Shown: positions 44,030-50,299 of the stretch, in pieces
Layout: every line of letters starts with the position of its first letter
Position numbering within the stretch: position 1 is the first letter of the stretch
Assembly (NCBI GenBank): GCA_001662655.1
Contig: KV460211.1
Reading direction: 5' to 3' (one strand)
Source of the DNA: Pseudogymnoascus verrucosus
Lineage: Eukaryota
Length of the DNA stretch: 64,000 nt
Made by a program: the position numbers and the translations under genes
Notes under the pieces: model-generated
What the model was told of the DNA's origin: nothing
The model's input: the letters and a program-made list of their open reading frames with translations, nothing else
Database searches by the model: none

Positions 44030-47000
44030 GGTCCTGCGCTCTCAGGTCTCCTATTCTGGATATTGCAACATGCGGCAGCGCTCCAGGCTAATAGTCCAGA
44101 TGCGCGGTGTGGGTTGTGAGCGAGCAGATTCGGAGAAGGCTACCTGCGCCTTTTGTTGTTGTTGTCGACTCTGTTGGTTGAGGTCTCCTTGGTAGGTTAG
44201 GGAGATACGAAGGAAACCAAGCACGATTATTGAAGCAAGGACGAAGAAATGTCTTGGTTTCCGGCACTTCAAGCAGAGGGTATGTACAGAAAAGTCTTTA
44301 ACAGCGGCAGTGGAATGCGCGACGGCGAGGTGCAGCTTAAACAATTGTTTGGAAACGTGGAGAGGGAGGTGGGTGTTACAGAGGTGTGTCGGGTGTGCAA
44401 CAGAAGGACGGTTCGACGGTCGACGGGCCTCTGGCGGTCCATATGCACGGAGGGTCTATGCACGGGAGAGACATATGCAGGTACCAGGTACCACACCACG
44501 GTGACACCCACAAGGTGCACGGATCACATGCTCAGTGCAGCGAGTAGGAGTTGAGGATTGGAGGAAGTTGAGGGGAGGGGCGAGAGGGAGAGAGGGGGAT
44601 TGGCGGTTGATGACAATCTGCGGTGTGTTGCTCTCGATGCTTGTAACTTCACGGGTTGCACTCTGTCGACCTCCTTTTTCGTTGTTCTCATATTAGGGAC
44701 AGTTAGAAAATCATCAGGAGTAACTCGACGAACACACAACGCCATTCTCATGCACATCATCAATATCACATCCCCATCTCCCACGCTCTAGAACTCTAGA
44801 ACTCTAGAACTCATCTCATCACACCAGCCCGCCGCCGTGCCAACGGTGGATGGTCGATGGTCCCATCTGCACGACATGGCATCCCCCATACAAAGGAGTC
44901 CATGGTGTAGTAATGACGCTCCCCTCCAGCCGTGATCACTTCCCCTTTCAGCCGCCCCAGGACCAGCCGGGTTAGCAGTGGGTCAGGATGGTGCGCATCA
45001 CCCGCCACCTCCGTCGCATCCAGACTGGTCCCCCGATGGGTCGCTATGGGGATTACAGTTGAGGGTTTACGAGATTAGGCCAGGATCCAATCCAGCTGGG
45101 GTGCTGACTGTAGATGGTGGTGGTGCGGCGAGGGCGATGGGGGTTGGGTGGGACGGTCCAGGGTAAGCGCTGTCATCTCCAGGGCTGGCTGTTCCTGGCC
45201 ACACGCTGTATGTTTCAGAGCGCCACAAGGGCAGGCAGGGTCCTGATTTGGACGGTGGTGAAGGCTGATGTTGAATGAGGAAATTGCTATGGTGGTGTGC
45301 AGTAAGTAAGCAGGTTATCGTGTTGTACCCGACTTCACGCACGACAGAAATATCCCTCTCTGTACCGGATTGACCGGACGGATGAGATACTCAAAAGAAC
45401 TCGAGTCCCTCTCGTTCATTAGCCGTCGTCTTTTTCGGAGATTTGATCTGTGCATCCCTTCCGCATTGGGACGACGCCACGATGGGTGGGATCGAGAAGG
45501 GGGGTGTGCTTCGGCTAGGACCGGGGGGGTCTTGTAACAACCCCCTATTGTTTGTTGGTCAGGGCGGCTATTTGGGATATTATGGGATGAAAGAGTAGAG
45601 TTATATATAATTGTGGGATTCCTGCATTATGGGTGCTATGGTTAAAATGTCACACGTGTGTTGGCAGGAATGAGAGAGCGGTGGATGAAGAAAAAATAAG
45701 TATGTAAGGGCAGGAAAAGAAGAGGTGTGAAGAATTTGGCTTCGGTTAGGTGCAGCACGGTCGCAGTGCAGGTACTGTGCAGCACCACTGCGAACCCCTT
45801 TTTTCACGTGTTTGCTCCATTCAGGGTCCTTGCTCGCGTGTGTAAACGGGGTACGGCATACATCGTACTTGCGTAATCCAGAAAGATAGAGATAAGAAGG
45901 AACGAACCAAGGAACGCCCGGATGCCGGAAGAGAAGAGAGGGCTTTCATAAACAGATGCCGCCATTAATCCCCTAGATCCAGTTTGCTGCACCAGACAAC
46001 ACAGCACAACACCGCACACGATATCAACACCGCACGCACACTGGATAAGGAATTATGGAGCCCCGGCGATCAACATATGCCGGTGTTTCTTGGAACCGCA
46101 ACGTTGCGCCCTCACCGCTCCTTCAACGCTGTTATTCCTCCGCTCTGGCCTCCTGCGGTTTCGCTGTAGCCTTGCTGGTGGTGCAGAATCTAACCCCTCG
46201 AACTTGCGGAATCTGGTACAAGATCTCTTCATGACAGCAGGCACTATTCCCGCTCAAGTAATCCGTGCACAACTGATCGGCTTTCCCCTCAATCCTCTCA
46301 ATAGGTGGGGGGGTGTTGTTGTCTGGCGATCAGTGCTCCGTTGTTGCTCCGTTTGCTCCTGATTGCTGCTGATTGTTGTGCTGGTCGTGTGTGTGATTTG
46401 GTGTGGTTTGGTGGTATTTTGGCGGTGTTTTTGTTGCTCTGAGCTGAGACAATTATCCGTCCCCCGCTGTTGTAATCATGATCACGTGACCACCACACAT
46501 GAAATTTTTGACAAGTTGGCGGAGGTGGGGGTGACCGCGGGGCTTTCCCCTCCTCAACCACCGGAACACCTGGAGATACTTTCAACAAACTCCACCATAG
46601 CCATTCTGCCTCCTAATGGACCAAATTAATATGAGAAAATTGTATAAAATCGTATAAAAAATAACAAAAAATACCATCACAACCGGAAAATGTTTAATAA
46701 AATGTCTTGGACGTACGCCAATTCACCCTTTCCGCGCGTCTTCTATACGTACACCTCTTTTGCTGCGTTACGTACTCTTCCATTTCCCTACTTTCCTGCC
46801 CCGCCAAATATGCACCACCACTTAGAGCCCAGCATGCTCCAATGACGCCTGCACTTTCCCGCCGATAGTGGAACAAAACCCACCATCCCACCTCACCAAA
46901 CCACCTGCTAGCTCCTCCGAACTTTCCCTGGGCTCCCGTACAACCGCACATTCCCAAAAACACACATAAACACCCCTCCTTCCCCTCTTCCGCTCTTCTT

Positions 47001-47163
47001 TCTCCTGTCTTCACCCACAAACACTTCTTCGATATAACCCAAAGCTTCAAAACTTCCAAACATTCTGATACACTTCAACCCTTACCTCAAAAACACCCAA
47101 TACCCGTCTTAAACCTGTTCTAGATCGTCGCTCCTGAGTGTCGATCTTCCTCAAGTCTTCAAG

Positions 47164-47344
47164 ACGTTTTCTAATCTCCTTAACTCGTACGTTCCCTTTC
47201 CTCTCGGAAGAATATGAAGAAGATGAAGAAGATGGAAGAAGAAGAAGAGCTCCAAACTGACTCCCTCACAGTATCCACCACCCGTTTGCTGGAGGCCGCA
47301 AGAGTGCTCCTGGTAGTTCATCGGATTTACCACACGTCAAATAA
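47164..47344 (+). promoter_or_regulatory. Spliced, ACG-initiated 31-codon uORF in the INO1 5' leader; exons 47164-47186 and 47272-47344
   Basis: ttcaagACG strong initiation context; intron GTACGT..AACTGAC..CACAG; peptide (M)FSNLLNSIHHPFAGGRKSAPGSSSDLPHVK; stop 79 nt upstream of the INO1 ATG. Confidence 0.7.
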
Positions 47345-47423
47345 TTAATCCAATACAACCAAGAACAACCAAACTCAAACCTCCACATATTTTAGTAGCT
47401 TACTACTTTTAACATACTAAAAT

Positions 47424-49016
47424 ATGGCACCACACGCTGACAATGGCACTGGTGTTGCAAACGGGAACGGTGCTTCCCCCGTCAAGGACCTTTTCACGGT
47501 CAACAGCCCAAACGTCGTGTACACCGACGAGACTATCAAGTCTAAGTACACGTACTGCACCACCTCTGTCTCTAAGGATGAGGCTGGCAAGTACGTTGCT
47601 ACCCCCAAGGAGACCGTCTACGACTTCAAGGTCGAGCGTGCCATCCCCAAGACCGGTATGATGCTGGTCGGTCTCGGTGGTAACAACGGTTCCACCGTCA
47701 CCGCTGGTATCATTGCCAACCGCCGCAACCTCACCTGGCCCACACGTGAGGGAAACCGTACTGCCAACTACTACGGTTCCGTCACCATGGCCTCCACCAT
47801 GAAGCTCGGTACGGATGCAAAGACCGCCAAGGATGTCAACATCCCCTTCCATGACGTTCTCCCCATGGTCCACCCCAACGACCTTGTCGTCGGCGGATGG
47901 GATATCAGCTCCATGAACCTGGCTGATGCCATGGACCGTGCTGCTGTCCTTGAGCCCACCCTCAAGGCCATGGTCAGCAAGGAGATGGCTGCCATGACCC
48001 CGCTCCCATCCATCTACTACCCGGATTTCATTGCCGCCAACCAGGAGGACCGTGCCGATAACCTCATTGCCGGCTCCAAGGCCTGCAACGAGCACGTCGA
48101 GAAGATCCGCAAGGACATTGCCGACTTCAAGGCCGCCAACAACCTTGACAAGGTCATTGTCATGTGGACTGCCAACACTGAGCGCTTTGCTGAGCTCATT
48201 CCTGGCATCAACGACACTGCCGACAACCTGTTGAAGGCCATCGCTGACGGACACGAGGAGGTTGCTCCTTCCACCGTCTTCGCTGTTGCCTGTATCCTCG
48301 ACAACGTGCCATTCATCAACGGCTCCCCCCAGAACACCTTCGTTCCGGGTGCCATTGACCTTGCCGAGAGACACGGTGCGTTCATCGGCGGTGACGACTT
48401 CAAGTCCGGGCAGACCAAGATGAAGTCCGCCCTCGTCGATTTCCTGATCAGCGCCGGTATCAAGCTCACCTCCATCGCCTCGTACAACCATCTTGGTAAC
48501 AACGACGGCAAGAACCTGAGCTCCCAGCGCCAGTTCCGCTCCAAGGAGATCTCCAAGTCCAACGTCGTCGACGACATGGTCGAGGCCAACCACATCCTGT
48601 ACAAGGAGGGTGAGCACCCCGACCACACCGTCGTGATCAAGTACATGCCCGCTGTTGGTGACAACAAGCGTGCCCTCGACGAGTACTACGCCGAGATCTT
48701 CATGGGCGGCCACCAGACCATCTCCCTCTTCAACGTGTGCGAGGACTCCCTCCTCGCCTCCCCGCTCATCATCGATCTCGTACTCATCGCCGAGCTCATG
48801 ACCCGTGTCTCCTGGAAGGCTGAGGGTGGCGAGTACAAGGGTTTCCACTCTGTTCTCAGCATCCTGTCCTACATGCTCAAGGCCCCGCTTGTGCCCAACG
48901 GAACCCCAGTTGTCAACGCCCTCGCTAAGCAGCGTGGTGCCTTGACCAACATCTTCCGTGCCTGCGTCGGTCTCCAGCCCGAGTCTGACATGACTCTTGA
49001 GCACAAGCTTTTCTAA
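47424..49016 (+). CDS. INO1: Inositol-3-phosphate synthase
   Basis: [55 protein letters not shown] signature motifs; strong codon bias. Confidence 0.98.
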
Positions 49017-50299
49017 GCTTGTTGTCCTGTCTTGACAATACGAGGTTGATATGCACAGCACCTGAGAAGGGATTTTTAATTCTGGGACCCCCTCTTTCTC
49101 CGCTTTTTGATGGACTGGATGGGTAGGCTTGAAAGGGCTTGCTTGTCCTTTTTGTCATGGGTGGTGATAGGGGAGTCGGTATGGAGATATGTTATAGCGA
49201 TGCCATGAGCCTGCTGTTCAGCAACGGTGTCTGGTGGTAGTTGCAGCCGCTCGTTTGTAGGTCCCTTTAGTAGGGGCTGAAAATTGAAGGTTGTGCGTTT
49301 GCAAAACATTTTGGTTTTTGATGATTGTGATATGATGTGATGTGATGTGAAGTCTTTTGTATGTGCTGTTGTAGTATTGTAAACCTGATCTGTTGTCTCA
49401 TGCTGGCTAAAATTGTAGGAGATTCTAAGAGGGACTGTCCGTAATATCAGTGCGTACAGCAACTGTAGTTTTGGTAAAGGTGTTCGGTCACTCAGGGTTA
49501 CAGTCAATAAGCCAGTTGCTCAAGACATGTTAAGTTAAGAGAGAAGTTAGATCCTATTAGCGCAAATTGCTGGTATGATACCTCATCCTTACGATCCGCT
49601 AGAGCATAGATATACGGTACGTATTTGCTTTGCTGTATGCCTCTTCCCTATGTACATTGTAGTAGATTTGTGGGAATGAGTTGAGACGGTTGGTAGGGTG
49701 TTGTATAATTCTTGTTTTATCATATTTGCATTTTAGGAATTTATATATATATACATGCAATTTAATTAAACCATATGTCCCCGCCACAAACCACACACTA
49801 TTTATCCTTTCATTATCTACTACCTTTCTTAGACCCTGTTTCATATTTGATTTACATCCTCTACTCACTAGGCCGAGGGGCAGTGGTTTCGCATCACGCC
49901 ACTCTAAGACCACAGCGTCCCTGTTCCTGACATGGCGCGACGAAAACCAAAATAGCCTCATCTGAAAGAGTGACTCTTAAACTAACTAAACAAACCACCC
50001 ATTAGCTCCCACATCGGGTAACTGACTAGTAGTGTAGTCTAAATTCTCATTCTGTCTATTCCAAAATGCCTTTATATAAACATCCCCATCCATCCAAGCA
50101 TCCTATTCTCCATCATCAAAGTCTCATCCGTCCTTGCTTGCCGCAACTTCTTTATTTATTTATTTTCCCTCGACCTGTTCGGAGCTGGTTTTACTCGACT
50201 CGACTAGATCAGGGATTATTATTATCAAAATACATCGCCTTGATCGGCCTGTAAGGTGAGATTGTGAGGCTTTGCAAGAGCCGCGAGCGACGCTTTTTC

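Follow-up and report, generated by a model that had tools for sequence, protein, structure and literature searches.

The INO1 locus and its spliced leader

The window, by which we mean the whole 64-kb stretch of DNA that was analysed, carries on its plus strand the INO1 gene for myo-inositol-1-phosphate synthase as an intronless main ORF of 530 aa (47424..49016). This assignment is based on the ORF and on Pfam, in which the product matched PF07994 (E 6.6e-144, 479.7 bits) and PF01658 (E 2.1e-36, 124.8 bits) and exceeded the gathering cut-offs of both families (25 and 27, respectively). The features upstream of this ORF are on the same strand. They begin with a 5' leader without ATG, which spans at least 47027..47163 according to the starts of spliced RNA contigs, and the last nine bases of which (gtcttcaag, 47155..47163, positions -9 to -1, with A at -3) form a start context that was found to be conserved in the alignment of relatives. 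An upstream ORF (uORF) follows, whose start codon is ACG at 47164..47166, as recognized from the sequence and from the homologous codon in relatives. Exon 1 of the uORF (47164..47186, from sequence and blastn) consists of the start codon and 20 nt, encodes the motif FSNLLNS and ends within the codon of Ser8. It is followed by a 5'UTR intron of 85 nt (47187..47271, from RNA joints), which opens with GTACGT, contains a branch-point-like site, CTGAC, at 47257-61, holds 3 ATGs and is closed by CAG at 47271. Exon 2 (47272..47344, from sequence and profile) encodes HHPFAG..R.S and then ..G..SD.P.., ending with the stop codon TAA at 47342-47344. Between this stop and the INO1 ATG at 47424 there is a spacer of 79 nt (47345..47423) that has no ATG and is not conserved in sequence. 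The frame of the uORF differs from that of INO1.

The original prediction had placed in the INO1 leader a spliced, ACG-initiated uORF with a canonical intron, and this structural reading is supported. The ACG at 47164 and the 85-nt intron at 47187-47271 match the letters of the window exactly, the computed spliced translation is identical to the 31-aa product that had been claimed (start codon counted), and the uORF does stop 79 nt before the INO1 ATG. The start context had also been called optimal, which is correct for the A at -3 and incorrect for position +4, where there is a T and not a G.

For the splice, Logan contigs of four public runs (X1, X2, X4 and X19) were aligned to 46500-49400. 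X4 is registered as metatranscriptome RNA, whereas X1 and X2 carry an RNA label that was guessed; all the records are contigs. The joint 47186->47272, by which 85 nt bounded by GT..AG are skipped, was present in one contig each of X1, X2 and X4, representing 3 studies, with shorter flanks of 108, 49 and 160 nt, respectively, and the DNA-like run X19 includes the intron sequence. Spliced contigs extend 5' to 47027 in X4 (160 nt without differences) and to 47079 in X1, cover 47027-47186 and 47272-47432, and are colinear from 47272 into the INO1 CDS. Because they reach back to 47027, the ACG lies inside the mRNA. An INO1 transcription start site downstream of 47164, which the original prediction had named as an argument against itself, is contradicted by these contigs, since they indicate a transcript beginning upstream of that position. 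The uORF is thus located in the 5' leader of the mature mRNA and is separate from the main ORF, as in the class of conserved-peptide uORFs (CPuORFs). Position 47027 is only the minimum extent of the leader, as contigs cannot reveal a true 5' end, and for the same reason the absence of X1, X2 and X4 cover 5' of it is no evidence of a transcription start.

The depth of X4 over the intron, which is itself GAA-rich, was 72.4 in the bin 47179-47275 and 156.9 at 47241, though the X4 contig listed is spliced. This could be due to a retained intron, to DNA, or to unrelated GAA-rich low-complexity contigs. If the intron were retained, its three ATGs and an ATG-initiated ORF of 44 aa (47214-47348) would become part of the leader.

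In the spliced leader of the window, a hairpin (47105-47166) is formed between 47105-47110 and the stretch whose last bases are the ACG, and the minimum free energy of the whole leader was -53.1 (z -3.1 against mononucleotide shuffles). The hairpin was absent from the consensus fold of the relatives, which spanned only 30 nt 5' of the start. About 920 nt upstream of the INO1 ATG, a CACGTG E-box (46483-46488) and CACATGAAAT (46496-46505) may be transcriptional control sites; the latter, we presume, resembles the core of the yeast inositol-responsive UAS with its E-box half reversed.

Conservation of the uORF among fungal INO1 loci

With nine near-cognate codons to choose from, some 'non-AUG ORF' is almost inevitable in any leader; the letters alone therefore prove nothing, and conservation has to decide. 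Residues 1-220 of INO1 were used as the query against metagenome contigs, which yielded 80 fungal loci with 61-86% protein identity, most of them with 2.5 kb of upstream sequence. These loci are contigs picked by patterns that included the N-terminal MAPHADNG, and many of them are near-duplicates, so that the 70 uORF models obtained (69 loci and the window) represent 47 unique CDS and 38 unique peptides. When the leader of the window was compared with the upstream regions of the relatives by blastn, one main shared block emerged, 47153-47197, which runs from the start context through exon 1 to the 5' splice site. The only other recurrent block was weaker (47266-47298) and covers the 3' splice site together with the beginning of exon 2. 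A tblastn search with the spliced peptide showed that both halves are conserved at the amino-acid level.

The model by which the uORF was scored requires a start codon, then 20 nt and a GT exactly within the Ser8 codon, and further an AG exactly 4 nt before the His-His codons. The complete model was found in 69 of the 80 loci, distributed over about seven deep clades of the INO1 tree (59 rows, with L060, L063, L065, L068 and identical rows left out). Five more loci are truncated contigs (L002, L010, L032, L049 and L076), the visible part of which carries the exon-2 peptide, and another three (L020, L060 and L065) have at most 53 nt of upstream sequence, too little for a verdict. As read from the sequences of the metagenome loci, the putative span of the uORF is the filamentous ascomycetes.

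The uORF was absent from three loci with at least 1066 nt upstream each (L044, L079 and L080), and a profile search of their upstream sequences (2500, 1066 and 2500 nt, respectively) returned nothing better than E 0.2. In L044, exon 1 survives as a degraded remnant 88 nt upstream of the INO1 ATG (in the region of about -100 to -60), in which the start codon is altered, 3 nt are deleted, and the intron and exon 2 are gone; its INO1 has an atypical N-terminus (MVAYAE...). Because L044 is nested within an ACG clade, its uORF was lost secondarily. L079 and L080 are the two most divergent INO1 loci and are sisters of L066, which carries the uORF; their lack of it is either a lineage loss or the edge of the range of the uORF.

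The intron has the same position in all 66 of the 69 loci that bear one. The introns are 52-576 nt long and unalignable, and their lengths show no bias modulo 3 (17/17/16 among 50 unique intron-bearing leaders). The three intronless uORFs (L012, L022 and L042) are on contigs of ~2 kb that resemble assembled transcripts, and when two of these cDNA-like contigs were compared with genomic relatives, the gap was exactly the predicted intron (175 nt for L042 against L039; 152 nt for L012 against L063). In one clade (L069, L071 and L073-L075), the intron has grown to 443-576 nt with 5-8 ATGs, and that of L069 gives simple Pro/Ser-like repeats on translation; the exon boundaries and the peptide are unchanged despite the larger intron. 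The reading frame of INO1 ends early in L063 and L068, after 99 and 48 codons, respectively, which is probably caused by an intron in the coding region; INO1 has none in the window.

Variation within the uORF is concentrated at third codon positions. The mean column entropy was 0.81, 0.65 and 1.33 for codon positions 1, 2 and 3, respectively. The invariant Ser8 is encoded by TCC in 13 sequences, TCA in 12, TCG in 12 and TCT in 8, four codons each are used for the invariant Leu6 and the near-invariant Pro12, and many synonymous codons occur for Leu5 as well. We calculated substitution rates by the method of Nei and Gojobori (NG86) with sums over all pairs. In frame, pS was 0.66 and pN was 0.29, corresponding to a dN/dS of 0.23, with 0.13 in columns 2-16 and 0.38 in the C-terminal part. 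Shifting the reading frame of this alignment to +1 and +2 gave 1.41 and 1.64, respectively. In the 48 close pairs (pS < 0.35), pN/pS was 0.28. The comparison of INO1 leaders proposed with the original prediction has thus revealed strong conservation of the peptide, in favor of the prediction, and the amino-acid conservation under purifying selection, seen in 69 of 80 loci, is that of the CPuORF class.

The length of the product is also maintained, with 25 of the 47 unique CDS encoding 32 aa, 21 encoding 31 aa and one encoding 28 aa, and the indels in the alignment are of whole codons only. The conserved core occupies the N-terminal two thirds (FSNLLNS.HHP[FYH].G.R.S) and includes two His and often one Cys. 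The C-terminal third is the least conserved, with the last 6 alignment columns being the most variable, and Pro-Pro-Trp does not occur in the alignment. A profile built from 46 other fungi, with the window excluded, recognized the spliced uORF of the window with E 4.9e-22. When all six frames of the 64 kb were scanned with this profile, the top two matches were exon 2 (47270-47341, E 6e-10) and exon 1 (47164-47187, E 0.075).

Start codon and scanning of the leader

The homologous start codon is ACG in 54, CTG in 6 and ATG in 9 of the 69 loci (41, 4 and 2 of the 47 unique CDS, respectively). On the INO1 tree, ACG is spread over all deep clades, ATG is restricted to one nested clade (support 98/90) and CTG needs two changes. 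A is found at -3 in all 45 unique sequences that start with ACG or CTG, and T in both unique sequences that start with ATG; the start therefore stays weak whichever codon is used. The bases at -4 and -6 are C in 44 and G in 43 of the 47 unique CDS, and among the nine bases 5' of the start, -7, -4 and -3 are nearly fixed and -8 and -5 are free. Since third-position-like sites in this upstream stretch are more conserved than second positions, the conservation there is that of a nucleotide context and not of coding sequence. The loci of the ATG-start clade are L021, L023, L025-L028, L030, L033 and L036, with the context ..ctgcATGt or ..ctgaATGt.

A start further upstream was considered and rejected. 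The upstream conservation is not codon-like, in-frame stops are found 1, 4 and 7 codons upstream of the start in L036, L018 and L045, respectively, and in L053 and L054 the frame holds no further near-cognate codon between the start and the stop at -12.

The spliced leader of the window contains no ATG from 47027 to that of INO1, and there is none within 150 nt before the uORF start. Counted in 53 unique leaders, the uORF exons had 0.00 ATGs per 100 nt, the spacer had 0.09 and the 150 nt preceding the start had 0.12. The introns had 1.68, and base composition would predict 1.05-1.15. An exonic leader so nearly free of ATG appears to have been under selection for scanning. The spacer between the uORF and INO1 measures 32-202 nt in these leaders, with a median of 53 nt, and the INO1 ATG that comes next is preceded by A at -3 in 40 of 47 relatives and followed by G at +4 in every one. 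In the cDNA-like L012, the spacer is 202 nt, compared to 99 nt in its close relative L063, and includes an extra block of ~150 nt.

A possible brake on inositol synthesis and its known counterparts

Taking these results together, we consider it highly probable that the spliced INO1 leader contains a genuine, translated CPuORF of the non-AUG, 'uCC-like' kind. By analogy, the weak start that has been kept, the ATG-free approach, the selected peptide (residues 2-17), the fixed length, the short spacer and the strong main ATG would be the hallmarks of regulatory non-AUG uORFs such as those of plant GGP and of AZIN1/ODC, and they would equally suit arrest peptides such as the fungal arginine attenuator. 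From such features we infer that the uORF is translated, that ribosomes are arrested by it and that INO1 is repressed as a consequence, so that the uORF would serve as a built-in translational brake on inositol production. Scanning 40S subunits would cross the ATG-free leader and meet the ACG in its conserved context with A at -3, where a minority of them would initiate while most would leak on to the strong ATG of INO1. The peptide of 31 codons, conserved in its N-terminal two thirds, would then act in cis within the exit tunnel, and the nascent chain would slow or arrest the ribosome within the uORF or at its end. An arrested ribosome would block the scanners behind it, and if these queue as far as the weak start, the ACG may be used more often. 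With reinitiation limited by the short spacer, INO1 synthesis would fall.

As to the signal, inositol or a close derivative, acting by end-product feedback, is quite possible, if somewhat short of probable. It is our guess for the ligand because INO1 catalyses the committed step; the identity of the downstream gene is all that ties the uORF to inositol. The inositol-dependent ribosome stalling that the original prediction saw feeding back on INO1 would be a mechanism of this type. We also offer, more tentatively, a specific version of it, in which the ribosome is stalled by an arrest peptide acting jointly with a ligand in the tunnel, either free inositol or an inositol phosphate, and the 31-32 codons, amounting to about three ribosome footprints, phase the queue. 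The idea is that a queued ribosome, the trailing 43S, would thereby be placed on the ACG, and a small rise in inositol might then result in a switch-like shut-off of the synthase. If this were true, it would be the first inositol-sensing nascent peptide, and filamentous ascomycetes would have a widely conserved translational counterpart of the yeast Opi1 circuit.

A uORF that is translated and depends on its peptide does not need to sense inositol. It might be a constitutive damper and a trigger of nonsense-mediated decay (NMD), or the sensor of something else, for which start stringency (the balance of eIF1 and eIF5), polyamines or eIF5A acting at Pro-containing motifs, and a lipid precursor are candidates. 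We regard this explanation as rather unlikely, and it has several points in its favor. A weak start with a compensating context would be sensitive to the stringency of initiation, and the conserved His-His-Pro and Asp-x-Pro positions could be eIF5A-dependent. Nothing in our data connects the uORF with inositol itself. However, a plain damper needs no conserved peptide, and the dN/dS of 0.13 over residues 2-16 argues for a specific function of the peptide. Moreover, the known conserved-peptide uORFs that precede committed biosynthetic enzymes mostly report the product of their own pathway. Control by NMD would fit a preprint on Cryptococcus neoformans, a member of a different phylum, in which INO1 is up in the upf1-delta mutant; the part of it available makes no claim of a uORF (PMC12934609). 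Transcription of ino1 in Aspergillus niger, according to the accessible part of another report, depends on a bHLH factor that binds Opi1 (PMC6962311), and inositol control could therefore be wholly transcriptional.

It is very unlikely that the 31-aa product is a free micropeptide that acts in trans (e.g., on membranes or the synthase) and is co-transcribed with INO1 for the sake of co-expression, without any translational control. Selection at the peptide level would be equally expected for a trans-acting peptide, and the motif does contain two His and often Cys. However, a near-cognate start kept for so long implies a very low yield, and the ATG starts, where they arose, took a weak context, which is the opposite of what is expected for a product needed in quantity. 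The fixed position just 5' of INO1, the ATG-free leader and the short spacer fit a role in cis. Searches for relatives of such a micropeptide were negative: hmmscan of the uORF peptides of L012, L042 and L022 against Pfam-A (E<=10) gave 0 families, and the best score in the ESM Atlas was 0.80, which is at chance level by the calibration of the tool, with no relative above it.

An extremely improbable explanation is that the conservation is non-coding, i.e. that an element of the DNA or RNA is maintained, be it a promoter motif, a leader motif, a splice enhancer or a structured RNA, and the frame is incidental. The conserved block includes the 5' splice site, and exon 1 and the 9-nt upstream context are conserved as nucleotides too. 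Against this stand the variation at third positions, with Ser, Leu and Pro codons fully variable among synonyms, the dN/dS of 0.23 in frame compared to more than 1.4 in the other frames, the restriction of indels to whole codons, and a frame that is kept across introns of 52-576 nt without bias of their length modulo 3. In addition, there were 0 matches to Rfam in 46800-47500 of the window (E<=1), and the RNAalifold consensus of 46 spliced sequences (-30 to stop) was empty and no better than that of column shuffles. The third-position variation, the empty consensus and the lack of Rfam matches place the conservation at the peptide level. The remaining explanation, that the uORF serves INO1 as a first coding exon or as an alternative extension of its N-terminus, joined by readthrough or a second splice, has the same mRNA and a distance of only 79 nt to recommend it and can be dismissed as practically negligible, since a stop codon is present in 70 of 70 models (TAA in 40, TAG in 6 and TGA in one of the 47 unique CDS), the RNA contigs are colinear from 47272 into the CDS with the uORF of the window out of frame, and the spacer has no fixed frame relative to INO1 (length modulo 3 of 27/15/11 in 53 unique leaders).

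A conserved-peptide uORF in the INO1 leader, which we favor, would be of interest for several reasons. To our knowledge, only a handful of metabolite-sensing uORF peptides exist in eukaryotes (those for arginine, polyamines, ascorbate, sucrose, SAM and phosphocholine), and each of them is a model for the reading of small molecules by the ribosome. Yeast INO1 is the textbook case of transcriptional control by a lipid precursor, and how the gene is tuned in filamentous fungi is much less clear. Inositol synthesis matters to membrane and cell-wall biology and to the growth of many fungi, and the unusually clean evolutionary signature of the uORF makes its post-transcriptional control a directly testable hypothesis. 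Annotation based on ATG is blind to this uORF, and intron-split non-AUG uORFs can be discovered by combining sequence and comparative data. The weak start and the peptide could also be used as a compact natural cassette for engineering the flux of the inositol pathway in production fungi.

In the main texts of the largely open-access literature that was searched, no uORF has been described for INO1, inl or MIPS of fungi; nor did the same literature contain the published non-AUG uORF of fungal INO1/inl leaders to which the original prediction had referred. Neither 'inositol' nor 'inl' appears in the accessible text of Ivanov et al. 2017 (PMC5487733), and the ACG codon described there, NCC8, belongs to cpc-1 and is preceded by GTCTTC as at the INO1 uORF. 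The available part of a 2024 review of microbial uORFs (PMC11550727) has 0 occurrences of 'inositol', and that of Li and Breaker 2017 (PMC5640933) has 0 of 'inositol', 'INO1' and 'synthase', with the uORF-linked fungal motifs in it concerning other genes only.

The INO1 uORF would join the conserved-peptide non-AUG regulatory uORFs, and it shares its most obvious features with one from plants. Laing et al. in 2015 reportedly described an ACG-initiated conserved uORF of GDP-L-galactose phosphorylase (GGP/VTC2) and proposed that it mediates feedback by ascorbate. In both cases, an ACG start and a conserved peptide precede a committed biosynthetic enzyme, and feedback of the end product on translation is presumed. 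The likeness is one of features, and kingdom, pathway and peptide all differ. With 31-32 aa, the INO1 uORF is also short, an intron interrupts it at a constant codon, and it is the N-terminal part that is conserved.

A second counterpart is the uCC, the upstream conserved coding region of antizyme inhibitor (AZIN1) and ODC homologues, which is said to have been reported by Ivanov et al. in 2008 and 2018. Like the INO1 uORF, it combines a conserved non-AUG start in a favorable context with a conserved peptide and leaky scanning, and the ribosome-queuing model developed for it would explain why the weak start has been kept. The uCC of AZIN1 has a C-terminal Pro-Pro-Trp pause motif, and its signal is polyamines via eIF5A. 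In contrast, the INO1 uORF has no Pro-Pro-Trp, its C-terminal third is the least conserved part and holds no recognizable stall motif, and it has no known link to polyamines.

Among fungal systems, the arginine attenuator peptide (AAP), the product of the arg-2/CPA1 uORF, is mentioned in the accessible part of PMC5640933. It seems similar in that a conserved-peptide uORF of about 24-32 aa precedes a biosynthetic enzyme, the conserved core is internal rather than C-terminal, and arrest blocks scanning. However, the AAP starts at AUG and senses arginine. The INO1 uORF peptides, three of which were compared with Pfam-A and matched no family at E<=10, are therefore not relatives of the AAP, and with the absence of Pro-Pro-Trp they are outside the sequence families of both the AAP and the uCC. 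The nearest chemical analogue to inositol sensing would be the sucrose-control uORF of plant bZIP11, whose nascent peptide, as far as the available part of the preprint goes, makes the ribosome stall when a neutral, sugar-like metabolite is present (bioRxiv 10.1101/2023.08.27.554957). That uORF differs in that it starts at AUG, its conserved region is C-terminal, the ribosome stalls at its stop codon and the main ORF encodes a transcription factor; a stall on the INO1 uORF is a proposal. Finally, control of yeast INO1 by Ino2/Ino4/Opi1 through UAS_INO and its counterpart in A. niger, as far as the latter is covered by the part of PMC6962311 available, concern the same gene and the same presumed inositol-responsive repression. 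That control is transcriptional, whereas the INO1 uORF, if active, would work on the mRNA and would thus be an added layer.
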